NCBI GenBank assembly: GCA_027062325.1
Contig: JAMOTN010000029.1
Location: forward strand, 1-43,893
DNA from: a bacterium
GTDB lineage: Bacteria; JAMOTN01
Direction: 5' to 3'
DNA: 43,893 nucleotides
Every line of letters starts with the position of its first letter. Position 1 is the first letter of the stretch. Positions 8,152 through 43,893 of the stretch are shown here, piece by piece. The position numbers and the translations under genes were made by a program. Below the pieces are notes generated by a model that searched no databases, was not told the origin of the DNA, and saw only the letters and a program-made list of their open reading frames with translations.

Positions 8152-8172
8152 CGAATTTCTGCTTTAAAAACA

Positions 8173-10907: not shown

Positions 10908-10965
10908 TTAATGCCATCACCTACACAATAGAAAGCAACCTTTTTACAAGCATTCAAGTCTTAAC

Positions 10966-12333
10966 TTATTTTCCCTTTAACTTCAAACTTTTCATATCTC
11001 TCTCATCAACAATAGGACCAACTCTTAAATTTAACTTTTTAGAAGAAACCCTTTTAACCACAACTTTAGACTTATGATTCAATTTTTTCGCTGTCTCCTT
11101 TTTACCTTCTCCTCCAACCCTTTTTACAAATAAAAACAAGTAAAGATTAGTCCAACTATAGCTTTTTTTCTTTTTTCTAAAAGCATTAGAAATTAGTGGT
11201 AAATCTCCAAAAAATGGAACCTTTTTGGTATAAAGTGTAGCCACTTTTTTGAATAATCCCCCTATAACAATTCCCTCTCCATCTTTCAACCATAAAGTTG
11301 TCTCTGCCTTTCTCGAGGACACTATGGGAGAGGAATTTACTCCCTCTCCAACTACCTCACTAACCTCCAACGCTAGATCAAGATTTATCTTATCTCCCTC
11401 AACAATCGGAGTAACATTCAACTTTATTCCAACATCCATGTACTCAACATCTGTTGAGGAAACTCCATTGTTAACAATTGTTGACTTGAGATAAGGTACT
11501 CTCTTACCAACCTCCAACTTAGCACTTCTCCCAGAAGATACAACCACACTAGGCTCAGAATAAGTTTTAGCTATACTCTTATCCTCTAGTAACCTCAACA
11601 ACGTTCCAAAATTTTCAAAATTCAATTCTCCTGGCGATGAAGACAAAGAAGTATCTCTCTCAAACTTTTTAAATGGCCAGAAAGTATCAATTCTAGAAGG
11701 CGCTTGATAAAGCGCTTCAAAATTCCAATCAAATCCTTCTTCTTTCATTTTACTTATGTCTATTGCTACAATGTAAGCCTTTATCATAACTTTATCAGTC
11801 ATTTTAGTCTTAGGCTCTTTCTTTTGTTTATTCCTCTCTTTCTCCTCTTTTTTCAAAACAAGATTGACGACTCTGTCAAATTCTCTCACCAACTTAGCCT
11901 CCAATGTAGCAAAGGCTATTCCGCTGGCTTTATCGTACTTCAAAACCACCTTTCCCTTCCAACCAAAAGTTTTTACTGCACTCAAAACCTTTCTGTAAAC
12001 TTTGTAATCCATAGAGTATATCAGAGTTTTAAAACCACTAATGCCAGCTGCATTTTTTTTCTGGCGAGAATATATAAAATAGACACCATCTTTTTTCTTC
12101 CAATCAAGCTTATCCGCCAATTTATACAGTGCTTCTTCAAAACTCTTACTTAATAACAAGCTAGACGGCACCTTTAAAGCATAAAGAGTCTTATCTTCAA
12201 TCTTATACTTTACCTTACTATCAGCTGACAACATATCCAAAACATCTGGCAAATACATAGTTTTGGCAGCGTTAACCACTAATAGCACAACAAAAACAAA
12301 AAACAATGCCAGCAATCTAACATTCATCCTCAT
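10966..12333 (-). CDS. Secretin (GspD/PilQ family)
   Basis: Signal peptide; VGIKLNVTP, IVIGGL, KVPFFGDLPLISNAF secretin motifs. Confidence 0.9.
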   Translation of the reverse strand: MRMNVRLLALFFVFVVLLVVNAAKTMYLPDVLDMLSADSKVKYKIEDKTLYALKVPSSLLLSKSFEEALYKLADKLDWKKKDGVYFIYSRQKKNAAGISGFKTLIYSMDYKVYRKVLSAVKTFGWKGKVVLKYDKASGIAFATLEAKLVREFDRVVNLVLKKEEKERNKQKKEPKTKMTDKVMIKAYIVAIDISKMKEEGFDWNFEALYQAPSRIDTFWPFKKFERDTSLSSSPGELNFENFGTLLRLLEDKSIAKTYSEPSVVVSSGRSAKLEVGKRVPYLKSTIVNNGVSSTDVEYMDVGIKLNVTPIVEGDKINLDLALEVSEVVGEGVNSSPIVSSRKAETTLWLKDGEGIVIGGLFKKVATLYTKKVPFFGDLPLISNAFRKKKKSYSWTNLYLFLFVKRVGGEGKKETAKKLNHKSKVVVKRVSSKKLNLRVGPIVDERDMKSLKLKGK

Positions 12334-12355
12334 TCTAACTCTATCACCACCACGT

Positions 12356-12802
12356 TTACCTTCTCTCCCTAAGCTCCCTCACTAAATCTCTCCAATCTTT
12401 TAACAAAATCTTCTCTCCTCGTTCTAATACGTATTCCCCTTCGAAAGTTCCTCCTCTATAGCTATACGGCACTTCAAATAATTCTACCTCTAAACTAGAG
12501 TTAATCAAAACAGCCATTCTTTTCCCTGCTTTGTTGAACACTCCTCTCAAATACCACGTCCACCACAAAGGTCTTTTAAAAAAATCAATGATTCGATCCT
12601 TATCTTCATCACCGTCGTTAGAAATTATCACTTCTTCTTTAGGAATATATTTCAACCACTCTTCAGGCGAAAAATTAACCTTCCTAGCATAAACCCTTAC
12701 CGCGCTAAAATAACACACATAAGCCCACACTACAAACAAAACTCCGAATAATATCCCAACTGCCACCTTCAAGTGTTTCATCTTCATACTAAACAACTCC
12801 AC
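12356..12802 (-). CDS. Hypothetical membrane-anchored protein (PilP position)
   Basis: N-terminal TM; immediately upstream of the secretin gene. Confidence 0.5.
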   Translation of the reverse strand: MELFSMKMKHLKVAVGILFGVLFVVWAYVCYFSAVRVYARKVNFSPEEWLKYIPKEEVIISNDGDEDKDRIIDFFKRPLWWTWYLRGVFNKAGKRMAVLINSSLEVELFEVPYSYRGGTFEGEYVLERGEKILLKDWRDLVRELRERR

Positions 12803-13408
12803 TTATTTACCTGCAGTTGACCTATTAACCACATTGGGCTTTTCTCTCACCGCAAAACGCCAAACGCCCTTTAGCCATAAAGCAATTTTTTCTCCATTTG
12901 ACAATATCTTAAACTCCTCTATATTTACTCTTCCCCTAAGTAATTTTAGAAGTTTTAACCATACAAAGTCAGTCTCACTTTCAAAACTCAGCTCAAATGG
13001 CAAAAATACAAACTCTGATATTCCAAACTTTTTAACTCTCCTAACTCTTAACCCTTTCCAAGCTACTTTTAAAGAAAGTCCCTCTACAACATTACCCAAA
13101 TTACTCCTCAATTCGTAATCCATACGCTCCTTGACATCCGAAACCCCATTGGAAAAGTCAAAGTACTCCCTTGTCTTATTTTCCAACTTATTCTTTCTCT
13201 TTGATAACTCGGTAAAAATTTCCTTCAAGACTGGTGAAGAGTACTTAAGTTTTATCAACTCAAACTCAGTTTTCAAATCTTCCACTTCTTTTCCTAAGCT
13301 GTTGTACTTCTTAAACCACTCGATAAAAAATCTTCCATAAATCAATGAAATAACTATCAATAATGTTAGCACAACTTTATCTATATCTTCTCTACTCAAA
13401 CAGCTCAC
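12803..13408 (-). CDS. PilO/GspM-like bitopic protein
   Basis: N-terminal TM, coiled coil, then alpha/beta domain; gene position. Confidence 0.5.
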   Translation of the reverse strand: MSCLSREDIDKVVLTLLIVISLIYGRFFIEWFKKYNSLGKEVEDLKTEFELIKLKYSSPVLKEIFTELSKRKNKLENKTREYFDFSNGVSDVKERMDYELRSNLGNVVEGLSLKVAWKGLRVRRVKKFGISEFVFLPFELSFESETDFVWLKLLKLLRGRVNIEEFKILSNGEKIALWLKGVWRFAVREKPNVVNRSTAGK

Positions 13409-14478
13409 CTCTTAACATCAATCTCAAACATTATCTCTCCATTGTCCCCATCATAATTAGCCGACAATATCTTGTATCCCTCCTCACTCAACCAATCACT
13501 CAACCCTCTGTAAGCTTTAAAACCTTTAGTCATAACCACAAAAGTAAACTTTCCTCCTGAAAATTCAACTTTTTTCACCCATGAATTAAGTGGAAGATTT
13601 TTAAAAACTTTTTTCATAACCATCATAATAGCACTAACATTAGAAAATTTTGTCATACTAACTAACTCTTTGTAAAGCTCTGCTTCTTTTTTCAAATCAT
13701 CCTCTACTTTTTTAAAAATGGGAAAAGCCCCTTTCATCCTAATCAATTCATCGTACATGATTTTCCTAACCACCAAAGCTTTATTCATCAACAGATAGGC
13801 ACCCACTAAGGAAATCAAAAAGAACATAATCAACAAAATATCCCGTGATACAGAAAACTCATCTTCTAATATCCCAATAAAATTCAAATTCCAAATGTTT
13901 AAACACTCGTAACCCTCAACTTCAGTATCAGAGTATATTGTTATACTAGAGATTCCGCTGTTTCTAGCTAAAACAACTATTTGAGGTAACCTAAGTATAA
14001 ACTCAGTTGAGGATATTATAGGAATGGTAGTTATTTTAACATTATCCTCATTTAACTCCACATAAACAATTGGAACGGCCTTTAAAACATATCCTACATT
14101 ATTCTTCTTATAATCAAGACTTTTCAAAAATGTGGCAGGTAAAGAAGACACTTTTTTAACTTTTATCTCTTTTTTCCCCAAGTCATTTATCAAATTTTTA
14201 ATGCTACTTTCTATATGAGCTACTGCAACCCAATTATTTTTCAGTTTGAATATGGTATATATTAAATTTTCCTTTGTTCCAAATATAAGCTGCTTATTCC
14301 TCTCCAAAAAATCCTCATCTAATTTCTTTAACTCTTTCACAGGTTTAGAATAAATGTAGAAATCGGTATCAACAACTAACTCAATCCTTTTTCCCTTAAG
14401 CTCATCCAAATCTACGGAGCCAGCATTTATTTCACTTACCAAAAGTCTCCTTATATCTTTCCCTAACATATTTGTCAA
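13405..14478 (-). CDS. PilM/PilN (GspL)-like protein
   Basis: Cytoplasmic N-domain, one TM, coiled coil, PilN-like LPLNSWVKKVEF; annotated start overlaps the dxr 3' end. Confidence 0.55.
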   Translation of the reverse strand: MTNMLGKDIRRLLVSEINAGSVDLDELKGKRIELVVDTDFYIYSKPVKELKKLDEDFLERNKQLIFGTKENLIYTIFKLKNNWVAVAHIESSIKNLINDLGKKEIKVKKVSSLPATFLKSLDYKKNNVGYVLKAVPIVYVELNEDNVKITTIPIISSTEFILRLPQIVVLARNSGISSITIYSDTEVEGYECLNIWNLNFIGILEDEFSVSRDILLIMFFLISLVGAYLLMNKALVVRKIMYDELIRMKGAFPIFKKVEDDLKKEAELYKELVSMTKFSNVSAIMMVMKKVFKNLPLNSWVKKVEFSGGKFTFVVMTKGFKAYRGLSDWLSEEGYKILSANYDGDNGEIMFEIDVKR

Positions 14479-15544
14479 ACTCCTCTATCTCGCGGATAGT
14501 GGTAAATTCCTGTTTTAACTCTACTCTTTCAACCACATCTATAATTCGATCAATCACTTCCCCAAATCTTATACTCCCCCTCAAGAAATCCTCAACTGCA
14601 CACTCATCAGCCGCATTCAAAGCTACCATAGCACTTTCTCCGTAACTTTTAAACTTATCAAGCGCATAAAAAAACAAAGGATATTTTTCCTCATCTATAC
14701 GGCAAAACTCCATATCTCCATTCACATTGAACTCTTTTCTAAAACTACCCCTAACTTCTGGATATGTAAGAGCATAGTTTATAGCAAACCTCATATCCGG
14801 ATCAGAAACAGCAAAAATCAAAGATCCATCAACCAACCTTAAAAATGAGTGAACGTAACTCTGCCTATGCAAAACAACCTCAACATCCTCCACATCTACA
14901 TCAAAATACCAACAAGCCTCTACCACTTCCAAAGCTTTATTAAACATTGTCGCAGAATCAACTGTTATTTTAGCTCCCATATTCCAATTTGGATGCCTTA
15001 ATACTTCCTCTGCACTCAAATCCCTAGGATTATCAACATCTCTTATAGCTCCACCCGAAGCCGTTATCCCAAACCTTGCTATGTATGGCCTCTTCACAAA
15101 TTCAGAAAGCATAAGTAGGGATGTGTGCTCACTATCTATAGGAACAATTTCAGCCTTAACTCCTTTAAGCAATTTTCCCCCACAAACAACACTTTCTTTG
15201 TTAGCCAAGGCTATCCTCTTTGAAGTATTAGAAAAAGCAATTGTTATCTCCAAGCCCGCAAATCCCGAAACAGCATTTACAACAACATCAGCTTTTTCTT
15301 TTGCTACTTCAATAGCCTCTGCAAAACTTATGAGCTTATTTCTTTTTACCAAATCATCAGCCAGCTCATTTTTTAAACTTCTAACAGCTATTTGCGGAAT
15401 AGAATATTTATAAGCCAACTCTTGTAAAAGATGTAAATTACTCCCAGCTGTTGCAGCAACAACCTGCCAACCAAGTTTATCTATGACATCCAAAGCCTGC
15501 TTTCCTATGCTACCAGTTGCTCCAAAAACAGCCACCTTTTTCAT
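14432..15544 (-). CDS. dxr: 1-deoxy-D-xylulose 5-phosphate reductoisomerase
   Basis: GATGSIG, LANKES, PIDSEH, HPNWNMGAKITVDSATMFNK. Confidence 0.97.
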   Translation of the reverse strand: MKKVAVFGATGSIGKQALDVIDKLGWQVVAATAGSNLHLLQELAYKYSIPQIAVRSLKNELADDLVKRNKLISFAEAIEVAKEKADVVVNAVSGFAGLEITIAFSNTSKRIALANKESVVCGGKLLKGVKAEIVPIDSEHTSLLMLSEFVKRPYIARFGITASGGAIRDVDNPRDLSAEEVLRHPNWNMGAKITVDSATMFNKALEVVEACWYFDVDVEDVEVVLHRQSYVHSFLRLVDGSLIFAVSDPDMRFAINYALTYPEVRGSFRKEFNVNGDMEFCRIDEEKYPLFFYALDKFKSYGESAMVALNAADECAVEDFLRGSIRFGEVIDRIIDVVERVELKQEFTTIREIEEFDKYVRERYKETFGK

Positions 15545-15625
15545 AGTTTATAGATTACCAAACACCCAAGCAAAATTTAAAGGGTTAGGTGTAAAATATT
15601 TTTGTAAGAAAAAGGAGGGTAGCAA

Positions 15626-16960
15626 GTGAATCAAAACAAGTTCCATAGCATTAAAGTAGCAATAATAACTTTTGGTTGCCAAGCAAATGTCTTTAACGCC
15701 TCACAATTGAAAACACTTCTCTTAAGCTCAGGATTCGAAATTGTGGACGAACAAATAGCTAACGTGGGAATAGTCATATCTTGTGCTGTCCGTAAAAAAC
15801 CAGAAGATATAGCACTAGCAACTGCTCAAAAGCTTGCCTCTTCCGGCAAATTAGCCATATTAACTGGCTGCGCTCCACACTTTGTAAAAGACAGAATTTC
15901 GCCCGACAGTAACATTATCCTTGTTCCCATAACCGAGATGTACAAAATACCAAATTTAATTCGCACATATTATATGAAAAGTGAAAATCTAGATAACAGT
16001 GCTTTTCTCCTAAACACAGAATCTTTGACTGAACCAAAGCTAAATATCTACACTCCAGAAGAATTTCCTTCAGCTTTTGTAGCAATTTCTGAAGGATGCA
16101 ATAATTTCTGCTCATACTGTGCCGTTCCTTTTGCAAGGAGCCGTGAGCGCAGTGTTAAGCCTGACGAAATTTGCAAATTCATCGAAAAACTCGCTTCTAG
16201 CGGGTACAAGCTCATAACAATAATTGGTCAAAACGTCAATTCTTACGGAAAAGACATAGGCTATTCATTTCTTAAATTGTTAAAAGACATTGACTCCATA
16301 CCCCAAAATTTTTGGTGTTTTTTTACAACATCTCATCCCAAAGACCTATCTCTAGAAGTTGTAGATTTTGTAATGAATTCTAGAAAGATCGGACGCTGGT
16401 TCCATCTCCCTCTTCAAAGCGCAAGCAATAGAATTCTCTCCAAGATGAATCGCCCCTATACTTTTGAAAAGTACTTAGAGATTGTAAATTATATAAAGGA
16501 GCTGGATAAAAACAACTTTGCAACTATAACCACAGACTTGATGGTTGGTTTCCCAACAGAAACAGAAGACGACTTCACAAAAACCTTGGAAGCAGTAAAA
16601 ATTATAGGATTCGATGGAGCTTATACCTACTACTATCAAGAAAGGGCAGGCACATTCGCAACGCGCCTTCCTCAACTTCCTATTGAGCTGAGAAAAAAAC
16701 GCCTCGAAAAACTCGTAGAAACTGTAATGACACTTTCTAAACAACAGAGCAAGCGTTTTCTCAATCGTTCATTCGAAGTAATTATTGAAAAGAAAGCTAA
16801 AAAAGGCGGATGGCAAGCTAGAATGTTCAATAATAAAGTTGTTGTTATAAACAAAAGCCACAACCTACAATTGGATAAAATCGCTCCATCTGATAAAATC
16901 AGCGTTAAGATAACAGACTCAAGAGGCTGGATCTTGTTAGGCATCGTGGAAAAGGAGTGA
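15626..16960 (+). CDS. miaB: tRNA methylthiotransferase MiaB (radical SAM + TRAM)
   Basis: TFGCQAN, SCAVR, GCNNFCSYCAVP, GQNVNSYG, TDLMVGFPTET. Confidence 0.88.
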   Translation: MNQNKFHSIKVAIITFGCQANVFNASQLKTLLLSSGFEIVDEQIANVGIVISCAVRKKPEDIALATAQKLASSGKLAILTGCAPHFVKDRISPDSNIILVPITEMYKIPNLIRTYYMKSENLDNSAFLLNTESLTEPKLNIYTPEEFPSAFVAISEGCNNFCSYCAVPFARSRERSVKPDEICKFIEKLASSGYKLITIIGQNVNSYGKDIGYSFLKLLKDIDSIPQNFWCFFTTSHPKDLSLEVVDFVMNSRKIGRWFHLPLQSASNRILSKMNRPYTFEKYLEIVNYIKELDKNNFATITTDLMVGFPTETEDDFTKTLEAVKIIGFDGAYTYYYQERAGTFATRLPQLPIELRKKRLEKLVETVMTLSKQQSKRFLNRSFEVIIEKKAKKGGWQARMFNNKVVVINKSHNLQLDKIAPSDKISVKITDSRGWILLGIVEKE

Positions 16961-26659: not shown

Positions 26660-29299
26660 TTATATTCCATCAGCTAAAGTTGGAACATAAACTTTTTCTG
26701 CAACACTTTTTACAAACTTAGCAGCCTCATCAACACGAGCGAAATTCTCAAGCCCAACACCACTTATCACACGCACGCTGCGTTTAGTCTTTGTCAAAAT
26801 CACAGCTGCTCCAATAAAATTAGTACCTTTATCCCCACTAACATATTCTCCAACAACCTCAGTCTTGGCTCCCCCACTTTTCACCACATCAAACACCGTA
26901 GGAAGAGCCATCGCCGTATTGGCTCCAGCTGTTCTCAAAGCAAAAACCTCATCTTCCAAGCGCAATTTAACTCCTTCTACATCCCTAGCAAATTCAACTT
27001 TGAATATACGTCTCAAAGCATCATCTGCCAACTCAAGCTGCTCCACTCCTACTCCCATCATAACAACTCTACCGCCACCTCTTAAAAACTTATAAAGTTC
27101 TGCCACTTCAAATCTACTAATACTAGCAGGATTTCCTCCGACACTCCAAAACACCACTGCGTCTCTGTAATTTTTCAAAACTTTAGCATTAACCGGCCCA
27201 AATACCTCTGGAATCCAAATATCCACTACGTATCCTGCTCCTCTCAATATCTGGGCATAGTACTTACCGTAAACCATATTGGCATACAAACTCCCTTGAT
27301 TCATCACTAACAATGCATTTCCATTCCTCACAAACTTTGGCTTCAAACTTATCAACTCATCCCAGTGAGTAGCAGCTGCCCAATCAAGGTTTTTATAAGA
27401 TATCATGTAATTTAAAACCGAAGGAACATACACACTCAAACCAAAACTTCCCGCCATTTCCGGCGTATGCCCTTCTGCAAACACAACACCTGAAGAGTAA
27501 ACAACACTGGCATTCTTTATTTTACCTTCACTCGACCAACTATCATCATCTAAGTAATGAATCACATAGTTTATTTCATCAACTCTTTCATCACCTATGA
27601 ATGGCCCAATCTCAACAACCCACTTATTTCCCTCTTTCCTAAAAGGAGTCACAACACACTTTTTATCTTCACGCAACTTGCTGCCAAAAGGCCAGTACTT
27701 TTTATCAGGTACTTTCCAACCGTTTATCCCCCAATGAATCTCTGCAGGTCTGGAGAACTCAATGTGGATTGGATCATTAAAAATTTTTTTATTCTTATCT
27801 TGTAAAGATGTCACCAACTCTATTCCTTGAGTTTTGATAACCTCTAAGGCTAATCTGCCTATCTCCTGATCTTTACTCTTTAAAAGTTGAGATACATTGT
27901 ACACAAAACCTAAAAGATCACAGTAATCTGGATCATCGTAGTCTCTTGTTTGAAGCCTTGCCTTTGCAATTAAACTTAAAACTTCAGGACTCTTTTTAGC
28001 TAATTCAAGAATACGCACAGCAAAATTATCTACAGCCTTGGCTAACTCGTCTATTCTATCCAAATCAATCGCAGCCTGGGTAACCTTTCCCCATCCTTGA
28101 ATTCCACCCTCATAAGACTTAACATAAGCTTCAACCACATTTTTGGCAAATTCCCTACCATCCATATCTGGCTTCTTTTTGAGACGCGCCAAAATCTCAT
28201 CATACGGCCAACCATCACCCGGCTCTGTCTGTTCACTTCCTATCATCACATGAGCAAAATCTTTAAGCTGATAAGCAACCTCTATCATCCCCATCAAACA
28301 AGCATCAAAAGCAATTACATCTAACTTCCCACCATGAACATCTCTTATTTGTCTTAAAGCACTCTTCAAAGCCCAAAAATCCAGATTATTTCCACTCGAT
28401 TCATCGTAAGAAACTCCCTTGTGAATTGGTGCCTTCCAACCAGCACCGTGATTCCATATAACAAGTGCTACACGCTCAGCTGGGAAATTCTTCATTCCCC
28501 ATTTAGCAAAGTCAACGAGAGTGGATGCTGCCCCCATATCCACTTCTCCTAAATCTGCAAGTAATCGAGAACCTATCTTTTTATTATCAATATCCAAAGT
28601 TATGTAATAACGGCGTGCTCCAGTCCAGTCTCCATTTGAGGCATCATAACCTTCTGCTCTGTCTATTTGAACCACAATCTTAACATCGTCGTCGCTTCCC
28701 ACTCTTTCCATCTCATTTATATCGTCTATTCCAGCACTTTCCAAGTCATTATCTGCATTTATATAAACGAGCACAAGCCACTTAGCCTTTTTAGTGGTCC
28801 CCCCCGTATTTTGAGATTGACTCGAACCAACAATCTCATCATCTTTTTTCCCATTTTTCCACCTGCTAACAGCATCCTGAATATAAGCTTCAACATCAAC
28901 ATTTCTGAACTCGTACTCAATCTGCTGAACCAAAACCAAAACTTTAGTCAACTGCCAATCAGACATCGTCAATACCTTTGATTTCAACAATTTTTCTATC
29001 TCTTTCACAAGATCCATAATTACAATTAAATCTTGGTTGTAGCGAAAGTACATCTGCTTTACAAAATTCTCAATTCCTTCGTAATCTTTCTTCTCTATCA
29101 TTTTCTCTGTATACTTCAAAATCCTATCCTTCAATTTTTCAGCCTTTTCTCTATACATCTCTTTTTCTTCTGTCGTTTTAGCAGCATAAAATGCTATTTT
29201 GGTAAAGAAATACTTATCAACCTTTTTCAAAAGAATATCCACATAAGCAAAGCTGAAAACAAAAGTTAGAACTACAAACAGCAGTATCCATCTCTTCAT
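26660..29299 (-). CDS. Exported clostripain-family (C11) cysteine peptidase with extra domains
   Basis: WLVLVYINADNDLE, catalytic WNHGAGW and FDACLMG, GLSVYVP...THWDELI. Confidence 0.88.
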   Translation of the reverse strand: MKRWILLFVVLTFVFSFAYVDILLKKVDKYFFTKIAFYAAKTTEEKEMYREKAEKLKDRILKYTEKMIEKKDYEGIENFVKQMYFRYNQDLIVIMDLVKEIEKLLKSKVLTMSDWQLTKVLVLVQQIEYEFRNVDVEAYIQDAVSRWKNGKKDDEIVGSSQSQNTGGTTKKAKWLVLVYINADNDLESAGIDDINEMERVGSDDDVKIVVQIDRAEGYDASNGDWTGARRYYITLDIDNKKIGSRLLADLGEVDMGAASTLVDFAKWGMKNFPAERVALVIWNHGAGWKAPIHKGVSYDESSGNNLDFWALKSALRQIRDVHGGKLDVIAFDACLMGMIEVAYQLKDFAHVMIGSEQTEPGDGWPYDEILARLKKKPDMDGREFAKNVVEAYVKSYEGGIQGWGKVTQAAIDLDRIDELAKAVDNFAVRILELAKKSPEVLSLIAKARLQTRDYDDPDYCDLLGFVYNVSQLLKSKDQEIGRLALEVIKTQGIELVTSLQDKNKKIFNDPIHIEFSRPAEIHWGINGWKVPDKKYWPFGSKLREDKKCVVTPFRKEGNKWVVEIGPFIGDERVDEINYVIHYLDDDSWSSEGKIKNASVVYSSGVVFAEGHTPEMAGSFGLSVYVPSVLNYMISYKNLDWAAATHWDELISLKPKFVRNGNALLVMNQGSLYANMVYGKYYAQILRGAGYVVDIWIPEVFGPVNAKVLKNYRDAVVFWSVGGNPASISRFEVAELYKFLRGGGRVVMMGVGVEQLELADDALRRIFKVEFARDVEGVKLRLEDEVFALRTAGANTAMALPTVFDVVKSGGAKTEVVGEYVSGDKGTNFIGAAVILTKTKRSVRVISGVGLENFARVDEAAKFVKSVAEKVYVPTLADGI

Positions 29300-34638: not shown

Positions 34639-34959
34639 ATGAAAATATCCCTTTATGAATTTATAGAGAAGTTATTCAACTCAGAATTCAAACTCACTGT
34701 CGTATTCAAAGGTGAAAACGAAGAAAACACCTATTACGCTTTCGTTCACAACAGAAAAAATATACTCATACCCGTTACCAAACTTCCAAAATTATTTGTC
34801 GAAGCTTTCGAATATTTCTTAGAATTTAGAGGACTTGAAGAACCACCAAATCCAATTTTAGACCTAGCCGATTACTTTCAATTCGTAGTAGAAGAATTCA
34901 AAATAAAAAATGTCCCAATTTACGCAGAGATGCAGCTCATCTATCCCGACAAAACGTAA
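34639..34959 (+). CDS. Hypothetical protein (106 aa)
   Basis: GGGGGTGG RBS; co-oriented with the Cys-rich ORF. Confidence 0.65.
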   Translation: MKISLYEFIEKLFNSEFKLTVVFKGENEENTYYAFVHNRKNILIPVTKLPKLFVEAFEYFLEFRGLEEPPNPILDLADYFQFVVEEFKIKNVPIYAEMQLIYPDKT

Positions 34960-36175
34960 GAACAATCTCGTACTTATCATTGCTACTAACATAGTTCAAG
35001 AGGTGAACCACTAATTCTGTCTTATATTTTACCATTAAAGCACTATTTACCCCGTGCAACTCTTTCCACAAACCAGCAACAAACCATCCACCTAAGTATA
35101 CTGCACCATCAACTCCAAGCATCAAATGAACAGTTTGCACTCTATTATTTCCTAAAATGCCTTTTATTAATTCACTCAATTCGTTAAAATACTTTGGAAA
35201 ATTTTTCAGGCAGCTTTCATGTAAAGCATCGCCACTTTCAAACCTGTAAATTTTCACATTTTCCTCTGGAAAACCATCTGGTGGGACATAAGCATTCATA
35301 CCTACCTTCTTATCACCATCTCCCCCAAAATAAACCCCAACAGGCTTTTTTTGTACTATACTAGGGTTAACACTCTTTCTCTCTTTTGACCTTAAAAGAA
35401 TAAACAACTCGTTCCTTTCAAACTTAACTAAAAATTTACCTATCCACTCCAACAAAAAATTCAATTTGACCCCTTTTCTCACTGTCCATTCATAAGTTTT
35501 TGTAAAATAAGTTAAAAGCGAAATGAATCTTCTTTCTTCTATTTTTCTACATTCAGGCAACTTTTTTAACAACTCAGCTTTCTTCTCATCGTGAGCTCTC
35601 TTCAAATACCCATCCTTTAAAACCCCTGTAAAGGCAAACTCTTCTAAATCTTCTCTTACTTCCAAACCTAAATTCTCAAAAATCGCAGAAACAAATCCTA
35701 TCAAAAATGCCAAATTCCATGACATACCTGTCAGTATCTTATGCAAACCAATATCAGTCAATTCAAATCCTAAAATCAACTCCATTTCTAACTCTTCAAA
35801 ATAATTGCTTTTTAAAACATCTATCCAAACCCTCTTATATCCCTTTTCCCTAAATAAAACTTTCTCCAATTCATCTCTTAACTTTTCCAGACCTCCCTCA
35901 AGCTCTTTTAACCATGAAAGTTTCTCTTTTCCTACATTAATTTTTTCTAAAATTCGCCCCAACTCTTTCTTATTGGCAACATTAAAAACCCATATCTTGT
36001 AAATATCCAACTCTTCATCCACAATTACTGGAAAATTCACCTTAGTAATACAGTTAGTCTCTAAAAAATCTATAAAATCTGCCCTCTCAGCTTTAAGTTT
36101 CCACAAACCGCCATTTTTAATCTTACCAGTAGTAAAATCACATTTCCATTCAAGGAAAATTAATCCACGTTCCAT
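34937..36175 (-). CDS. Lon-type protease domain plus SAVED/CARF-like lobe (CalpL-like)
   Basis: TGMS152WNLA...FAFTGVLKDG...EKK199AE Ser-Lys dyad pattern; C-terminal VHLMLGV...LNYVSSNDKYEIVL resembles a SAVED C-lobe; CRISPR context. Confidence 0.65.
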   Translation of the reverse strand: MERGLIFLEWKCDFTTGKIKNGGLWKLKAERADFIDFLETNCITKVNFPVIVDEELDIYKIWVFNVANKKELGRILEKINVGKEKLSWLKELEGGLEKLRDELEKVLFREKGYKRVWIDVLKSNYFEELEMELILGFELTDIGLHKILTGMSWNLAFLIGFVSAIFENLGLEVREDLEEFAFTGVLKDGYLKRAHDEKKAELLKKLPECRKIEERRFISLLTYFTKTYEWTVRKGVKLNFLLEWIGKFLVKFERNELFILLRSKERKSVNPSIVQKKPVGVYFGGDGDKKVGMNAYVPPDGFPEENVKIYRFESGDALHESCLKNFPKYFNELSELIKGILGNNRVQTVHLMLGVDGAVYLGGWFVAGLWKELHGVNSALMVKYKTELVVHLLNYVSSNDKYEIVLTFCRDR

Positions 36176-36194
36176 CTCTATACCTCATAAATCC

Positions 36195-37226
36195 CTATAC
36201 TTCTTCAATATCAATCACAACTTCCCCTGCCTTCATAAGAGCAAACATAACTTTTAGTTCTTCTCCTTTTTGGGCATCTCCTTTATTATCTAAAATCAAT
36301 GGTAACATATCAATCTCAAACTCTAATTCATCTCTTTGATTATTCCTCTTGTTAATAAAAACCAACTTATATTTTCTTCCTCTCTCAAGTTTTTCCATAA
36401 CTTCGTCTAATATATCAATAAACAAACTAACCTTTTCTTTATACTCAACTAATTTAACCATCACCTTTTCAAATTTTTTAACTTTTTCTGGTCCTTCTGC
36501 AGCAGCCGCTAACACTATCCGTTCCTGTGGAGGACATAAGTAACTCTTTAAAACTTCATAAACTTTATTTAATACAATAACTTGAGCAGATTTACCCGAT
36601 AAAACAACCTGCTCTTTTTTTTTAACATCTGCAATTTCTAATAATTCGTCGAAATACACCAATTTCCAATTTATTTCAGCTAAGATTGATCTAACTTCTA
36701 ACCGAAAGTCTCCTTTTTTAAGGTACGGTATGCCCCGAGACAGAATAAAATGTTTTAGATCTACTGATAAAATTAAATTTGAAGCTTCTCCAACTCCTGT
36801 TAATTTTTTTATTACTTCCGCCACCTCTTCAGGAACATAAGAAACTAAATAGCAAATTTTCCTTATCGAATTCAAACTTAACGTGCAGACAGCATCTGTA
36901 AATACTGCCCACACTCCTCCTTTCATATCTCTTACCACCCAATCCTGCATATCCGCAAGAATGTGATATTTACTCACAAGCACCACATCTGCCATTTCTC
37001 CATCTTCATCTAATATCAAAATCCCAAAATCCTCAGCCCCCTCGAATACATATAAATCTCCTTCCGAAAAAATTACTGGATAATTTTTCTTCTCCTTCTC
37101 ATTTAACACTTCTAAATATTTTCCTTCAAACATTTCTTTCAAACTTCGTGCTTTTTCTAATATTTCCTCCTCATTATATTTTCCTAATATTTCCTCAACC
37201 TTTCTCTTTAATGCTTCCAACTTCAT
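36195..37226 (-). CDS. Putative anti-sigma factor/protease target (CalpT-like)
   Basis: EGDLYVF...VVLVSKYHILADMQDWVV...YLVSYVPEE resembles a MazF/PemK-like fold; LAAAAE linker; between sigma and protease genes. Confidence 0.55.
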   Translation of the reverse strand: MKLEALKRKVEEILGKYNEEEILEKARSLKEMFEGKYLEVLNEKEKKNYPVIFSEGDLYVFEGAEDFGILILDEDGEMADVVLVSKYHILADMQDWVVRDMKGGVWAVFTDAVCTLSLNSIRKICYLVSYVPEEVAEVIKKLTGVGEASNLILSVDLKHFILSRGIPYLKKGDFRLEVRSILAEINWKLVYFDELLEIADVKKKEQVVLSGKSAQVIVLNKVYEVLKSYLCPPQERIVLAAAAEGPEKVKKFEKVMVKLVEYKEKVSLFIDILDEVMEKLERGRKYKLVFINKRNNQRDELEFEIDMLPLILDNKGDAQKGEELKVMFALMKAGEVVIDIEEV

Positions 37227-37278
37227 CGCTGACCCCTCCCTGCTTAGTAGTTTGTCTTAAAGCTTCTCCATTTTGTAG

Positions 37279-37305
37279 GACCTATGTAACTACCTTCTTG
37301 TGACA
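37279..37305 (-). promoter_or_regulatory. Candidate ECF-type promoter 2: TGTCACA-N16-GGTC
   Basis: Overlaps the sigma gene stop and points at the CalpT-like gene about 50 nt downstream. Confidence 0.55.
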
Positions 37306-38136
37306 AAACAATTTTTTAATTTTTTCCCAGCACAACTTCGCACTTTCAAACTCCAACTTATCTAACTCTTCTTTGGCAATTTCTTGCATCTCCTCACTAC
37401 ACAAATACAAAGCAATTAAACATTCCTCGACTACTTCAGATAATTCTTCTTCTGCTAAGAAAAACTCTTTCCATTCTTCTTCAACAGTTTTCCAAAACTC
37501 CTTTAACTTTTTCTCAGCTCTTGACTTCTGCTTTCTAGCAACCGCAGGCATAGAAAATTTATAAATTTCTCTGCACTCATCAACAACACTGTGAATACCT
37601 CTCACAATATTTTTTAACATCGTCCAAAACATTCCTACCAATTCAGCAGGAGTAAAATTTAGGAACTTTTTCATCTCTTCAATAAATGCTTCATAGTAAT
37701 CAAGCTGAGGAATAGAAAACTTCTTATTCAAATTCTCTAATTTCTCAATATCCAACTTTTCATTATCATCCAAACTATCAATCTGTAGCTGATACTTTTT
37801 CTTCTCTTCTTCCAAATAGCTTGACCAACTATGAATAACAGTGGTTTTGAAATAATTATAATATTTACCCCACTCTCCAGATTTCGGATCAAATGCCAAG
37901 GTTTTATTTTTCATTGCTTTCTCAATTTTATGCAAGTACTTATCAATAAAATCCTCTATTATTAAGAATGGCAAATCTGGAAATTTTTTTCTGATAATTT
38001 TAACCATAATTTTTTCAACACTATTTTGCAACTCTGCTACTGCCTTCAGACTAACACCAGCATTTTCATCATGCAAAATCCTAAAATAATAGTAGAGTAC
38101 ATGAGCCGGAGTTTCCTTCCTATTCACTGTAATCAC
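37282..38136 (-). CDS. Divergent sigma70/ECF-like factor (CalpS-like)
   Basis: Region 2-like FDPKSG..YYNYFKTTVIHSWSSYLEEEKK..IDSLDD; region 4-like end VARKQKSRAEKKLKEF. Confidence 0.65.
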   Translation of the reverse strand: MITVNRKETPAHVLYYYFRILHDENAGVSLKAVAELQNSVEKIMVKIIRKKFPDLPFLIIEDFIDKYLHKIEKAMKNKTLAFDPKSGEWGKYYNYFKTTVIHSWSSYLEEEKKKYQLQIDSLDDNEKLDIEKLENLNKKFSIPQLDYYEAFIEEMKKFLNFTPAELVGMFWTMLKNIVRGIHSVVDECREIYKFSMPAVARKQKSRAEKKLKEFWKTVEEEWKEFFLAEEELSEVVEECLIALYLCSEEMQEIAKEELDKLEFESAKLCWEKIKKLFCHKKVVT

Positions 38137-38155
38137 TCCTTCAAAATAGTACTAT

Positions 38156-38827
38156 TTATTCAACAGCTAAAACTCTCTCAATAAACTTCAAAGCTTCCCT
38201 TCTCCCTCCAAACATTTTTATCAAATCAACTCCATGTTTTCTCGCGCATTCTCTAAATACGCTTTCACTTTTTCTAATATAATTCCAATATCTACTATTC
38301 AAGTAAATTTTCCTCACCCTTTTCTTTTTAGGATTAATTCCTATGTAACTAGCATTTTCCATCAAATACTCCCTACATTCTCCCTCAATACTAACCATAT
38401 CCCATTTAACAGATAAAAGATCAATTTTCAAATTTTTTACTCCTAGAAATTTAGGATAACTTGTAAGAAACAGTAATCGCTCTCCTTTTAAAAACCTCCA
38501 CCTTAAAACTGGTCGCCTGTCTTTATTCCCTAACCATCTCTCTACAACCTCTCTCAACTCTTGAGGCAAATTTTTATCAAACCTCCAGAAAATCTTATTT
38601 TTCAAATACCCAAACGTCACTGTTGAATTTTTCTCAACAATTCTAATAATCTCATCATCTGACATCTTTTTCTTAAACTTAAACTTTCTCCTATTCCTAA
38701 ATTTAACATTCCTTTTATTCTTACTTCTCTTAGTAGTTTCTCCATCCTCACTATCGCCACTTGAGCTAAAAATAAAATAACCAGCCGCCATTAACATCCC
38801 CAAAATTACTCCACCTAAACCGTTCAT
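38156..38827 (-). CDS. Hypothetical basic membrane-anchored protein
   Basis: N-terminal TM, Lys/Arg-rich; GGGGGA RBS; 19 nt upstream of the sigma gene. Confidence 0.65.
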   Translation of the reverse strand: MNGLGGVILGMLMAAGYFIFSSSGDSEDGETTKRSKNKRNVKFRNRRKFKFKKKMSDDEIIRIVEKNSTVTFGYLKNKIFWRFDKNLPQELREVVERWLGNKDRRPVLRWRFLKGERLLFLTSYPKFLGVKNLKIDLLSVKWDMVSIEGECREYLMENASYIGINPKKKRVRKIYLNSRYWNYIRKSESVFRECARKHGVDLIKMFGGRREALKFIERVLAVE

Positions 38828-39037: not shown

Positions 39038-39361
39038 CTACGCAATAATACCAGAAAACTTATTCTTAAAGTAATTCTCAACTTTCCTTAAATTTGCCTT
39101 AACTTTATTCAACACTTTGTCTTCAACAGATGTTATAAACAAATTGTCATCCTCATCCAATATTTTCTCAAGCTCTTTTAACACCTTATCAAGTTGCCTC
39201 TTTGACAAGTAACATGCAAACACACTGAACTGAACATCAACACCATACCTTCTAAGTAACTCCAAAATTTTTCTATCCTTTTTAGAATACCTAGTCCTAT
39301 CTTTCGCTCTAATATCATAAGATATGATGTAAATCTTTTTAGAAACCGTCATACATATCAC
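39038..39361 (-). CDS. cas2: CRISPR-associated Cas2 (second copy)
   Basis: YIISYDI...LRRYGVDVQFSVF...DDNLFI. Confidence 0.9.
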   Translation of the reverse strand: MICMTVSKKIYIISYDIRAKDRTRYSKKDRKILELLRRYGVDVQFSVFACYLSKRQLDKVLKELEKILDEDDNLFITSVEDKVLNKVKANLRKVENYFKNKFSGIIA

Positions 39362-39423: not shown

Positions 39424-40845
39424 TCACTTTAACACTTCAAGCACATCCTTGTACAAACGCTTCAACTCATTACTCCTATAGTAAAAACCTGCTAAATTAA
39501 GCAAAACGTTCCCAGGAACAACGTAACTAACAAACCAATTAATAAAACTTTTGATCTGACCATTTAAAATTATCCTATAAGAAAACACCTCATCATCTAT
39601 CCAGTTCACTAATTCCTGAGCAAACGAAGAGAAAGTTTTGCTCCCCAACTCTTCCGCCAAGAAAAAGTTTGCTTCCCACAAACTTGAATCACCCTCACTC
39701 CACGAAGGAACATCTAAAAATCTAAATGCCACCATTAAAGCCAAATACTCCAACAAATCATCTCTAAACTCTGTATCCTTTAGCATCTGCTCTATAAATC
39801 CCACAACCAAGATTAGCAATGAAAAGTAAGCAAATCCAAACATATCAAATGCATTAACGTGGAAAAACCAAAGTTCTTTTTTACTCATATCATCGTAATG
39901 ACTCTGTCTAACAACACGTTTAATTTCGTTAACAAATCCTCTTAAAAATCTGTTAATTCCATAAGCCGAAAAAGTACCATTTCCAAGTGTATCCAGCTCC
40001 CCCAAAAACCATTCCAACTCATGTCTAACTTTCAACTCCCACTTAAATAACCCTATCAAATCAGAGCTCTTGTTTAGAGAATGCCTAAAAACTTTATTGT
40101 AACCTCCCCAACTGAACACCTCATCGGAAAACGCAGTATAACACCTACCAATCAACTTTTTATATTCATACTTATATTCATCAAGTATCCTCAACATCTG
40201 CTCTTCAGCAGGAGATAAATTGTGCTTCCCCCTTAAGAACTCGTAAAACGGCTTTCTGTAGTTCGCCCACCACTGCTTACGTATTCTCTCTTTCTCCTTA
40301 GCCCTGCCTCTCTTATCCAAAACCTTTTTCAACTCTCCATAGCTCATTTCATTCCACGTAACTTTAGCAACAATACTCTTTACCCGCCTCAAAAAAGTAT
40401 CAACTTTTTTTCTCATAGGTGTTACTGCCTCAGTCAAACTTCTGAACAAATCCGCTATATTTGGAGTTTTTAATCTATCAAGCATAAACATGTAATTTAA
40501 GCAATCAAAATTCACACAGTAGTTGTAAAACTCCCTCGCCAAATCAACGTTCTGCTTCAAAAAAGCATTTTTTAACTCTTCACGTTCTCTGCTGCTCACC
40601 CTCCTACTAATAGGAGTTACACGCTTAAATAATCCCAAGCAATTTCCAGCAAATTCCCACCTAGCATCAACTTCCCAAAAAACATCATCCGTCAGCCTAA
40701 ATTTATACTTTCCATCATCTCTTTTAACCAATAAACGTTCTATTTGCGGCACTACAATTTTGACAGTTCGAGGTTTAGTTCTTTTCTTACGATTTATAAG
40801 AACTCCAGCAACTTTTCCTAGAAACTCCAATATTCCCATTCTCAT
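39424..40845 (-). CDS. Highly diverged, probably inactive Cas1 paralogue
   Basis: Collinear by-eye matches to Cas1: IVVPQIERLLV, DLAREF..NYMFML, FLRGFVNE (cf. LRGYEG), VNAFDMFGFAY (cf. LNLFFNYAY), DDLLE (cf. SDIME), YRIILNGQI; His loop absent; flanked by two cas2 genes. Confidence 0.55.
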   Translation of the reverse strand: MRMGILEFLGKVAGVLINRKKRTKPRTVKIVVPQIERLLVKRDDGKYKFRLTDDVFWEVDARWEFAGNCLGLFKRVTPISRRVSSREREELKNAFLKQNVDLAREFYNYCVNFDCLNYMFMLDRLKTPNIADLFRSLTEAVTPMRKKVDTFLRRVKSIVAKVTWNEMSYGELKKVLDKRGRAKEKERIRKQWWANYRKPFYEFLRGKHNLSPAEEQMLRILDEYKYEYKKLIGRCYTAFSDEVFSWGGYNKVFRHSLNKSSDLIGLFKWELKVRHELEWFLGELDTLGNGTFSAYGINRFLRGFVNEIKRVVRQSHYDDMSKKELWFFHVNAFDMFGFAYFSLLILVVGFIEQMLKDTEFRDDLLEYLALMVAFRFLDVPSWSEGDSSLWEANFFLAEELGSKTFSSFAQELVNWIDDEVFSYRIILNGQIKSFINWFVSYVVPGNVLLNLAGFYYRSNELKRLYKDVLEVLK

Positions 40846-41187: not shown

Positions 41188-42795
41188 TTAACCATTAACT
41201 TTTCTCTCTCCAAACTTTCTCAATGCTTTTTCAAAGGAGCTTATATCCTCCTTCAAAAATCTCTCCACAATTCTCAATAATCTAAACTCAAACCATTCAG
41301 AAACTACTCGCACCACCAATGAAAAATCCAGATCAAATCTTTCCTTATTCAACAACGCCCTAAGAATTCTTTCAAATTCATCTTCCTCTCTATTCTTCTG
41401 GCCATCCTCTTCGCCATCCTCGGCAGCAACATCTTTAATTACCTGCAATCTCCTAAGCTCTTCCAACAAACTTACCCATATATTATATCTCAAACTTTCC
41501 AACAAACTCTCCAACTTCTCATCCTTGCCATAAAGTGCCGTGTTCAATTCTTTATATTTACTCCTAAAAGGATGCTTTACCTCTTCTGTCCATTCCAAAT
41601 AAAGCTTTAAAATTGAACTCAATACATCAGAATCTCCCAAATCCCCATCTTCCTCACAAGCCTCATTGATAGCAATATCATTTTTAGAACAAGATTCACT
41701 ATTAGAGTTACAATTGCGTCTTTCATTTTTTTCATTATTGCCTACATTTTTACCAGCATCCGTAAATCCTTTCAAAAATCTTTCTAAGTCACCCCTTTTA
41801 TCATCCAAAAACCTATTAAAAACAACGGTATCAAAAACCACATGTTTTATGAGTAGCACACGCACTCTTTCCATAATATCCGACGCTAAAGCATAGTGTC
41901 TCCCCCTCTTTATGTGCATCACACCGAGTGAGGGATTGAAATTTTTTATCAAGAGTATGCAAGTTGTAAGGTTGTATATGAGAGTATATGCATAATTAAA
42001 GAATAGATTTAAGAAATCATTTGACTTCCTGTCACGCCTTTTAAACGCCGGATCCAAACCAAAAGTTCCTAACACATTCTTCATCAAATCAAACATGAAT
42101 ACACTAGCTCTTCCTTCATAACCCCTTAGAGTATTAATCTGCGAATCCAAGACATTTACATAAGTTTCCAGATTCCTAGCTATCCTCTTTTTATAGCTGC
42201 CTAACTCTTTCAAAAAATCATGCAGTCGCTTTTTGGTATTTTTCAACCAATTTAACAATCTAAGTCCATTATATTCACTATCAGCCTCCCCATTCTCATC
42301 AGTCCAGTTTCCATGTTCCGTCTTCACTTTCAAAAACAGTAGTTCTGTTAGCTCAAAAAGACTTACCATTTCCTGAATTTTGTCACGCACTATCTTAATA
42401 ATAAAATTTAATCTCCAGGGTGAGTTAGTCAATAACATTTGAAGTTCTCGTAATTTGTAAGCACTAAAGTAAGAAGACGGTAAAATAACCGACTTTATAC
42501 TCAAATTTCTTCCTACAATTATTACTTTTTTCTCATAGTTCGCTAATAATCCTAAAGCTTGCGTTGTTAATTGAACATTCTGTGAAACTATAAGGTAATC
42601 AATTGCAGCTATTGGAATTTGAATTTTTTCAGGATAAGAACGAGCATCACTAACTCCGCCAATATCAATTTTTTTGCTAATTCCTCCTGTAGAAACAGTA
42701 AGATTAGTAGAAGTTAGTGATGTAAGAACAGAAAAAGGCCGAAACAATAAACTTCCCTTCTCTACTCTCAACTTACCGGGTTTAAGGATTATCAT
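41188..42795 (-). CDS. cas1: CRISPR-associated Cas1, enlarged (535 aa)
   Basis: IPIAAIDYLIV, LTTQALGLL, LRGYEG (E), NYAY, LGVMH (H), LASDIME (D/E). Confidence 0.92.
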   Translation of the reverse strand: MIILKPGKLRVEKGSLLFRPFSVLTSLTSTNLTVSTGGISKKIDIGGVSDARSYPEKIQIPIAAIDYLIVSQNVQLTTQALGLLANYEKKVIIVGRNLSIKSVILPSSYFSAYKLRELQMLLTNSPWRLNFIIKIVRDKIQEMVSLFELTELLFLKVKTEHGNWTDENGEADSEYNGLRLLNWLKNTKKRLHDFLKELGSYKKRIARNLETYVNVLDSQINTLRGYEGRASVFMFDLMKNVLGTFGLDPAFKRRDRKSNDFLNLFFNYAYTLIYNLTTCILLIKNFNPSLGVMHIKRGRHYALASDIMERVRVLLIKHVVFDTVVFNRFLDDKRGDLERFLKGFTDAGKNVGNNEKNERRNCNSNSESCSKNDIAINEACEEDGDLGDSDVLSSILKLYLEWTEEVKHPFRSKYKELNTALYGKDEKLESLLESLRYNIWVSLLEELRRLQVIKDVAAEDGEEDGQKNREEDEFERILRALLNKERFDLDFSLVVRVVSEWFEFRLLRIVERFLKEDISSFEKALRKFGERKVNG

Positions 42796-43223
42796 GATTT
42801 ATATTATAAAATAATATTCGAGATAACGATGGATATATTCTGTTTGTAATCAAAAAATTGATGAGGGGGGAAGTTATAGAAATAAATTTAGGGATATGTA
42901 GCTGAACCGTCTTAATCGAAAAATTAAACGGAACTTTAATATATCTCTAGGTTTTCTATGAGTATTAGTTAAAAGTAGCAGCTGTAAATTGAAATCAACA
43001 TTAATGACAAGAGTAAATACTGCAATAAAGTAGAATAAGAAGAGGGAGCTGTTTAGTGTAAAATTGTTCAAATAATTAAAAATTTTGAAAACGAGGGCTA
43101 TTCAAGAAAGAGCTAATTTGAAGTATACTAATTGTGCAATTTAAAATTTGAAAAAGAAGTGTACAAGCGTCTTCCCCACTAGTGGGTTAAAATTGCCTAT
43201 TCAGAATATATATGATAAGTAGT
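42796..43223 (+). promoter_or_regulatory. AT-rich CRISPR leader / divergent cas promoter region
   Basis: AT-rich gap between cas1 start and the first repeat; candidate sigma70 promoter TTCAAG(43101)-N17-TATACT(43124-43129). Confidence 0.7.
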
Positions 43224-43893
43224 GTTTCATTGCCGAACACTTACTAACGGATTACGACATATATCGCCCTCGTAGAGGGCTACGGAAATTCTCACAGTTT
43301 CATTGCCGAACACTTACTAACGGATTACGACCGAGTTCCCCTCGCTTCGGGTGTCCCCCCTTTGGGTTTCATTGCCGAACACTTACTAACGGATTACGAC
43401 AAACTAAACACTCTAGGTTTTACGGCAAAAGCATTTGTGTTTCATTGCCGAACACTTACTAACGGATTACGACGGGCTCGGGCGGGGTCCCGGGGCTTTT
43501 GCCCCCGCGCGGTTTCATTGCCGAACACTTACTAACGGATTACGACCCCCGACGCCCCAGTTGGGGGTGTTGGGGGCTCGTCGGTTTCATTGCCGAACAC
43601 TTACTAACGGATTACGACCGGTTTCCTTTTTTATGTTCCCTTTTGCAGCTGTGAGAGCCCGGGCCCCGCACCCGAGCTCCCATACGACCGGTTTCCTTTT
43701 TTATGTTCCCTTTTGCAGTTTCTGTTTCATTGCCGAACACTTACTAACGGATTACGACGAGTCTTCGACTCCCTTATTTATTTATAATGAAAAGTTTCAT
43801 TGCCGAACACTTACTAACGGATTACGACGTGAGGTCGCGGCCGCGGTCCTCAGGCCTAAGCCTGAGTTTCATTGCCGAACACTTACTAACGGA
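43224..43893 (+). CRISPR. CRISPR array, 35-nt repeat GTTTCATTGCCGAACACTTACTAACGGATTACGAC, 8 full repeats plus 1 cut by the window edge; type III-like
   Basis: Identical repeats at 43224, 43297, 43366, 43439, 43512, 43584, 43724, 43794, 43866; spacers of 38, 34, 38, 38, 37, 105, 35, 37 nt; 3' end ATTACGAC resembles type III 8-nt handles. Confidence 0.98.

Follow-up and report, generated by a model that had tools for sequence, protein, structure and literature searches.

A CRISPR array with G+C-rich, partly hairpin-forming spacers and an apparent out-of-register insert in an AT-rich bacterial genome: a possible natural parallel to the type III-A acquisition bias

The described systems that lie closest to the locus considered here are type III-A CRISPR systems whose adaptation machinery is free of reverse transcriptase (RT). 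For that of Streptococcus thermophilus, the passages of Zhang et al. (NAR 2022, PMC8860593) on which we draw report that hairpin-forming and partly palindromic DNA is over-represented among acquired spacers, that new spacers are taken without preference for a protospacer-adjacent motif or for orientation, and that the bias was measured on millions of newly acquired spacers whose sources were known, namely single-strand origins, ribosomal RNA (rRNA) and transfer RNA (tRNA) genes and attenuators. The RT-free system of Staphylococcus epidermidis shows a similar structure preference in the relevant part of a 2022 review (PMC9048733), which also names as an unsettled question whether secondary structure in DNA is recognised by the type III Cas1-Cas2 itself or whether another factor is needed. 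Here we describe a CRISPR array at the end of contig JAMOTN010000029.1 (assembly GCA_027062325.1), from a bacterium of GTDB lineage JAMOTN01; the window that we analysed is this whole contig of 43,893 nucleotides (nt), one of 81 in a 1.65-Mb assembly with a completeness estimate of 84%. The spacers of this array are strongly skewed towards guanine plus cytosine (GC), some of them fold into hairpins beyond what their composition predicts, and one insert appears to have entered the array out of register. A narrow phrase search of the literature found no paper describing native type III arrays whose spacers are GC-rich or palindromic, and we regard the spacer skew as a moderately interesting lead, not as a demonstrated new phenomenon.

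The array is a genuine one, with identical repeats, regular spacing, unique spacers and adjacent cas1 and cas2 genes. A repeat search placed nine copies on the plus strand at 43224-43893, eight of them full and identical (35 nt, 0 mismatches) and the ninth cut by the contig end, with starts at 43224, 43297, 43366, 43439, 43512, 43584, 43724, 43794 and 43866. Start-to-start spacing is 69-73 with one exception of 140, and regular inserts measure 34-38 nt with one apparent spacer of 105 nt, while the repeat itself is devoid of structure (z -0.03 against dinucleotide shuffles). We number the spacers S1 to S8 along the plus strand. The 105-nt stretch had been taken as a single spacer in an earlier reading made from the letters of the window alone (hereafter the sequence-only reading); it is really a 35-nt spacer (S6) interrupted by a 34-nt GC-rich insert (S6mid) and a 36-bp duplication, and with S6mid included the array holds nine integrated inserts.

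Evaluating the composition of these inserts, we found a GC skew that is real, very large and far beyond the composition of the host. Five of the nine are GC-rich (68-84% GC, mean 75%, 135/180 nt): S2 (43332..43365, plus strand as for all inserts; 34 nt, 68%), S4 (43474..43511; 38 nt, 84%), S5 (43547..43583; 37 nt, 76%), S6mid (43649..43682; 34 nt, 76%) and S8 (43829..43865; 37 nt, 70%). The counts that the sequence-only reading gave for four of them, 23/34 for S2, 32/38 for S4, 28/37 for S5 and 26/37 for S8, were correct on recount, as was its description of the surroundings as AT-rich (33-41% GC in the window, 38.3% in the genome). The remaining four are S1 (43259..43296; 38 nt, 47%), S3 (43401..43438; 38 nt, 34%), S6 proper (43689..43723; 35 nt, 37%, T-rich with 20 T and 2 A) and S7 (43759..43793; 35 nt, 29%). 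Across the host genome, 37-mers with at least 25 of 37 positions G or C number 2,491 windows, or 0.15% of the genome, and 60 of the 155 GC-rich islands of the host lie in rRNA, tRNA or transfer-messenger RNA (tmRNA) genes. GC amounts to 61.7% in the 16S gene (1,500 bits on the bacterial model) and to a mean of 64% in the tRNAs, with the genome as a whole at 38.3%, values which, as a trait read from sequence, indicate that the host is probably a thermophile.

Structure beyond composition exists as well, and it is carried by three to four of the nine inserts, which are imperfect palindromes. Each insert was folded with DNA parameters against 200 dinucleotide shuffles of itself, and three stood out clearly: S1 (z -2.66, 1/200 shuffles as good), which has a 6-bp all-G/C stem; S5 (z -3.11, 2/200; as RNA z -3.66, 0/500), whose 12-bp hairpin with two G-T pairs spans 29 of its 37 nt; and S6mid on the minus strand (z -2.71, 3/200; as RNA z -4.55), with a hairpin of 13 bp. 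S7 is borderline (z -1.75, 12/200), its weak 5-bp stem being unfolded at 75 C. The other five are S8 (z -1.23, 26/200), with two small hairpins not clearly beyond composition; S2 (z -0.68, 54/200; as RNA z +0.46), without excess structure; the unstructured S3 (z -0.28, 68/200); S4 (z +0.03, 103/200; as RNA z +0.29), which reaches -19.3 kcal/mol as RNA and is not better than its shuffles; and the likewise unstructured S6 (z +0.41, 200/200). RNA parameters rank the inserts as DNA parameters do. Pooled over the nine inserts of this one array, with the better strand of each, the mean z is -1.29 with RNA and -1.35 with DNA parameters at 37 C (empirical p 0.00025 each).

Set against the host rather than against their own shuffles, the inserts differ still more. 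By folding energy at 37 C, S1, S4, S5, S6mid and S8 rank with the lowest 1.5% among 1,499 host 36-mers drawn at random, and the same five remain folded at 75 C (at or below -2.3 kcal/mol), a temperature at which 1.5% of host 36-mers reach -2 kcal/mol or lower and at which the S5 hairpin still holds -11.9 kcal/mol. Energies of -13 kcal/mol or lower are found in four of the nine inserts as against 0.22% of 1,644,745 host 36-mers. G-T wobbles make the two strands unequal, S5 folding at -25.6 against -16.6 kcal/mol and S6mid at -13.2 against -24.1 kcal/mol. The stems named in the sequence-only reading are indeed the predicted minimum-energy structures, but its wider claim that most spacers are stem-loops, forming an array of near-uniform hairpins, does not survive the shuffles, with three inserts clear and one borderline; a pooled excess is present at 37 C, and S2, S4 and S8 fold as their composition predicts, which for these three is the outcome that the sequence-only reading had itself named as refuting it. 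Its description of the spacers as terminator-like fared no better, with two terminator-like sites in 42700-43893 against 1.2 +/- 1.3 in shuffles, one of the two taking its T-run from the repeat.

Profile searches of the whole assembly covered the RAMP, RVT_1 and Cas1 families only, and the RAMP search led to an effector module on another contig (C25). It encodes Cas10 (E 1.4e-25), Csm4 (1.6e-16) and two Csm3 proteins (5e-54 and 6e-22), together with weak matches to Csm2 (E 1e-4) and Cas6 (E 1.8e-4); no protein of the module scored as Csm5, and a neighbouring 513-amino-acid (aa) open reading frame (ORF) is without family. Its genes (stretch C25:16000-35999, about 6347-14087) form two divergent groups, with Csm2, Csm3 and the 513-aa protein on the minus strand and the Cas6-like protein, Cas10, Csm4 and the other Csm3 on the plus strand, and the module has no adjoining array and lies ~17 kb from the rRNA operon. 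From these matches we class it as type III-A-like (Csm), the only effector module found in the genome. We link it to the array because it is the only one found and because the last 8 nt of the repeat, probably the 5' tag of the CRISPR RNA (crRNA), are ones that we take to resemble known type III 5' tags. In the assembly, the effector genes are not joined to the array, which lies on the window contig and on a further contig, C76, and the fragmentation into 81 contigs leaves genomic linkage possible. Beside the terminal repeat on C76 stands a candidate CARF-HEPN (Csx1/Csm6-like) gene (C76 13833-15365; 510 aa), with weak matches to Csx1/Csm6 (E 1.6e-5) and CARF_HEPN (2.6e-4), an R-x4-H motif visible near its C-terminus and no Pfam match. 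No RVT_1 match was found in the 84%-complete assembly, an absence thus unproven, and Cas1 carries no RT fusion in Pfam, NCBIfam or PADLOC searches.

We tentatively favour, while stopping short of calling it probable, the explanation that an RT-free type III-A adaptation machinery with a preference for structure-forming DNA produced the spacer skew. The array fits the described hairpin bias because of its type III-A-like context, the lack of a detected RT and its excess of imperfect palindromes. In the proposed mechanism, RT-free Cas1-Cas2 would preferentially take up DNA able to self-fold during brief single-stranded phases, and candidate sources would include single-strand replication origins, transfer origins, structured-RNA genes, attenuators and terminators; at a high growth temperature only G+C-rich stems would persist, and GC-rich spacers might then arise even from AT-rich invaders. 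The analogy with type III-A acquisition had already been drawn in the sequence-only reading, and it now gains a Csm-type effector as the only one in sight, a candidate CARF-HEPN gene at the far end of the array, the failure to find an RT and the pooled excess over shuffles, with three to four of the nine inserts carrying the signal.

Several results weigh against this explanation. S2, S3, S4, S6 and S8, five of the nine inserts, fold no better than their dinucleotide shuffles, and when DNA parameters are applied at 70 C the pooled excess is lost, the mean z being -0.39 (p 0.12). The sample is nine inserts from one array, with neither a second array nor a relative for replication, and the effector module sits on another contig. 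GC-richness taken alone is explained equally well by an invader of high GC content. Finally, no protospacer was found for the inserts in any collection searched, and the bias known from the laboratory is not seen here in the form of self-derived rRNA or tRNA spacers.

The search for sources was as follows. Against the assembled 84% of the genome, blastn-short with all inserts produced no match above 18 nt (best E 0.03). When the inserts were aligned locally to the rRNA operon, the 5S gene, 44 tRNA/tmRNA genes and the other GC islands, eight of nine scored no better than 100 shuffles; the exception was the AT-rich S7, which scored 14 where the best shuffle reached 13. Rfam returned no family in the window at the gathering threshold and none in 43200-43893 at E<=10, a further point against the favoured explanation. 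GenBank phages and PLSDB plasmids yielded best E values of 0.2-0.7 over matches of 22-32 nt only. Scans of IMG/VR with 23-27-nt cores of S4, S5, S8, S1, S3, S6, S6mid and S2 (8/9 inserts) returned 0 matches, as did scans of GTDB species genomes with the S5 and S4 cores; both were exact-match only, and diverged protospacers would escape them. The sequence-only reading had proposed that BLAST against the host genome and viral and plasmid databases might reveal what the spacers derive from, and for no insert did a source emerge. Likenesses among the inserts were also considered as signs of a common source for the GC-rich ones, namely a gapped 19-of-22 match between S4 and the reverse complement of S6mid (p 0.002 uncorrected) and a 9-mer shared by S4 and the reverse complement of S3 (p 0.001 uncorrected), and were rejected, since both fail correction for 72 comparisons.

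The strongest competitor to a structure preference is that one or more high-GC invaders (a virus, a plasmid or high-GC neighbour DNA) were sampled without regard to structure and that the hairpins are incidental, an account we judge possible though unlikely. The failure of S2, S4 and S8 to outfold shuffles of the same composition and the lack of pooled excess at 70 C are what it would predict, and the S4/S6mid match, taken without correction, would be compatible with a shared source or with an element that is repeated. What speaks against it is, first, that the 75% GC mean of the five inserts exceeds almost any genome average and, second, that S5 and S6mid, two of those five, are near-complete hairpins at the ~1% tail of their own shuffles, which tells against a random sampling of pieces from a high-GC genome. 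S1 and S7, moreover, are not GC-rich and also bear stems beyond those of shuffles, and the exact-match scans, with cores of 23-26 nt, gave such an invader no match in GTDB species genomes (S4 and S5 cores) or in IMG/VR.

Retention rather than acquisition might instead have shaped the array, if strongly folded crRNAs are poor guides and therefore neutral and kept while active self-targeting spacers are purged; the sequence-only reading had offered this as its own alternative, and we consider it improbable. Counter-selection does shape type III arrays in the passages of PMC8860593 cited here, and S6mid has no proper 5' tag before it and so should not serve as a guide. However, neither the assembled 84% of the genome nor its structural RNAs contain a match to any of the nine inserts, which leaves this account with no sign of self-targeting and the alternative without support; inactivity, furthermore, confers no advantage on foreign spacers, and the acquisition of GC-rich DNA is left unexplained. 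A small-sample accident, a few palindromes among nine inserts with nothing systematic behind them, has in our estimation a similarly low chance of being correct: the number is indeed small, the signal is that of S5, S6mid and S1, and no relative replicates it, but the pooled p against shuffles is 0.00025 and five of nine inserts have at least 68% GC against 0.15% of host windows. That a reverse transcriptase made the spacers from GC-rich, structured RNAs is in our judgement very improbable, for although the G-T wobbles give the S5 and S6mid hairpins a strand-specific, RNA-like trait and the structural RNAs of the host have 62-64% GC in a 38% GC genome, the 84%-complete assembly has no RVT_1 domain, Cas1 has no RT fusion, and the array has neither an Rfam match at E<=10 nor any likeness to host RNAs.

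Apart from composition, the 105-nt stretch records an event of its own. After repeat 6 come 30 nt of spacer, a 34-nt stretch of 76% GC (43649-43682), the final 6 nt of the repeat sequence, those 30 nt of spacer once more, a further 5 nt and then repeat 7. The duplication thereby formed is 36 bp long, its first copy (43613..43648, plus strand) being the last 6 nt of repeat 6 with the first 30 nt of S6 and its second (43683..43718, plus strand) 100% identical at a spacing of 70. A separate assembly of the public DNA run X1 contains a 100-nt unitig that covers 43619-43718 with 0 differences, and the structure is therefore not an artefact of the assembler of this contig (the reads are possibly the same); S1-S5 have no contig cover in X1, which is uninformative either way. 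S6mid is thus a spacer-sized insert flanked by a repeat-length direct duplication away from the leader-repeat junction, the pattern by which non-canonical integration is recognised, and we read it as a spacer that was probably integrated ectopically by Cas1-Cas2 acting off register, six repeats from the leader. Two staggered cuts one repeat-length apart (36 against 35 bp) but off register would open the site, and gap repair would then duplicate a 'pseudo-repeat' of 6 nt of repeat and 30 nt of spacer. As an alternative, a decayed repeat would need decay at 29 consecutive positions with both flanking spacer copies still identical, which is far less likely. Read as ectopic integration, the S6 event may offer a clean case from nature in which the integrase applied its repeat-length ruler at the wrong site. 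Off-target integration that leaves a duplication of repeat length is already known, through the study that PMC6698737 lists as its reference 51.

At its far side the array continues, in our reading, on contig C76, one end of which carries a single repeat copy in the opposite orientation (29 contiguous bases match and the six at the repeat 3' end differ). We read this copy as a degenerate terminal repeat of the same array, which brings the total to ten copies (nine in the window and that one), and a simple repeat finder run over all contigs found no second array in the assembly. The best explanation is that the genome has a single CRISPR array and that the window holds its leader-proximal part. 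A scan of metagenome contigs with the repeat core gave the source contig as its sole match. Beside these features on C76 we also observed ~1.2 kb without a long ORF (15366-16559) between the candidate CARF-HEPN gene and the degenerate terminal repeat, and an 803-aa ORF without family (11264-13675, minus strand) near that gene.

The start codon of cas1 lies 428 bp from the first repeat, and the stretch between the two (42796..43223, plus strand), AT-rich, non-coding and without any ORF of at least 90 aa, is the putative leader. It contains three sigma-70-like sites on the plus strand (43004-43031, 43118-43147 and 43187-43216), which are matches to consensus only. We take the plus strand as the one probably transcribed because the perfect repeat 1 borders this AT-rich non-coding stretch and the degenerate repeat lies at the opposite end. 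Strand composition offers further support: S6 on the plus strand consists largely of pyrimidines, with 20 T and 8 C against 5 G and 2 A, and in host genes the coding strand is rich in G (over minus-strand genes the GC skew is about -0.4 to -0.5), so that a plus-strand crRNA would be antisense to host-like mRNA. The tag-like last 8 nt of the repeat may point the same way. The orientation stays at the level of a probable assignment because the reverse complement of the repeat also ends in a tag-like word. The excess of G over C on coding strands is itself very strong genome-wide (about 0.4-0.5).

Adaptation genes occupy the minus strand next to the putative leader. Cas1 (41188..42795; 535 aa) matches Pfam PF01867 (E 1.7e-28), TIGR00287 and PADLOC Cas1 (E 1e-32) over a domain of approximately residues 50-330, followed by an acidic C-terminal tail of ~200 aa without match; a word-indexed search of 5.8 billion proteins found no relatives at E<=1e-5, and no second Cas1 was found in the assembly. 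Cas2 (39038..39361; 107 aa) matches PF09827 (E 2.6e-15), TIGR01573 and PADLOC Cas2b (E 3e-19). Between the two genes lies an orphan ORF of 473 aa (39424..40845, minus strand) that has no family in Pfam, NCBIfam or PADLOC, that returned itself alone in a phmmer search of 1.84 billion representatives and no usable match in an Atlas search, and that is predicted to be mostly helical, its AlphaFold model (pLDDT 37) being unusable. Downstream of cas2, at 34937-38827 on the minus strand, we observed four consecutive ORFs of 223, 284, 343 and 412 aa, which have no credible match in Pfam (rows to E 1), NCBIfam or PADLOC and could be unrecognised cas or accessory genes. Together with three ORFs on C25 and C76 they make seven for which the best Pfam row, at E 0.028, still fell short of the curated cut-off of its family; for three of these ORFs, sub-threshold rows were all that appeared.

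Building on this gene order, a bolder conjecture, which we hold to be doubtful, is that cas1, the 473-aa ORF and cas2 form a structure-selective capture machine for thermostable GC-rich hairpins or imperfect palindromes from AT-rich invaders, such as single-strand origins or IS200/IS605-type ends, with a relaxed choice of site that would also explain the off-register integration. If true, this would be the first native-array record of a type III hairpin preference, and the 473-aa protein would be a candidate for a structure-recognition factor other than Cas1 and Cas2.

The host is the sole member of its order and of its phylum in the GTDB-based set compared. A search of public sequencing runs listed one DNA run, X1, and no RNA run. 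X1, labelled as a hydrothermal vent metagenome, contains the leader region on a 9.4-kb contig with 0 differences and is possibly the source sample, so it gives no independent evidence of habitat. Two further observations concern the genome at large. A 37-38-nt GC-rich sequence, unrelated to the spacers and unexplained, occurs in three near-identical copies at contig starts (C43:170-206, C44:129-166 and C44:1159-1196). Within the window, 26660-29299 on the minus strand encodes an 879-aa protein with a clostripain (Peptidase_C11) domain, an immunoglobulin-like stretch just above the Pfam cut-off and a sub-threshold DHHA1-like stretch.

Compared with known systems, the S6 event has its nearest counterpart in off-target spacer integration of a non-canonical kind by Cas1-Cas2, reportedly described by Nivala, Shipman and Church in Nat Microbiol 2018. 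Common to both are a spacer-sized insert (34 nt here), a duplication of about one repeat (36 against 35 bp) and a site other than the leader-repeat junction. The present event differs in lying within the array, six repeats from the leader, with a pseudo-repeat made of 6 nt of repeat and 30 nt of spacer, and in being natural and fixed, seen both in the assembly and in the second assembly of X1, whereas the described one was experimental. PMC9048733 also describes type III systems in which an RT-Cas1 acquires spacers from RNA. The locus shares with these a type III context and structured, strand-specific spacer hairpins, and it differs from them in having no detected RT and an unfused Cas1.

The closest parallel is with type III-A of S. 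thermophilus and S. epidermidis, with which the locus shares a Cas1-Cas2 without detected RT in a genome with a type III-A-like module, some hairpin-forming spacers and a broad range of spacer lengths (34-38 nt here). It differs in offering nine retained inserts of a native array without a match to the rRNA or tRNA of the host, in a bias that consists mainly of extreme GC content in an AT-rich, probably thermophilic host, and in a Cas1 with an unmatched ~200-aa tail and an orphan 473-aa gene between cas1 and cas2. The setting is unusual, with the only genome of its phylum in the set compared, a Cas1 without relatives at E<=1e-5 and that orphan gene. The evidence from the laboratory was gathered in mesophilic Firmicutes, on newly acquired spacers that had not passed through selection, and the present array would be a natural, testable case in what appears to be a deep-branching thermophile. 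To place the locus among these systems, we interpret the array, the cas genes and the off-register integration as being of known kinds, and the spacer skew as a plausible natural echo of the bias described in the laboratory.

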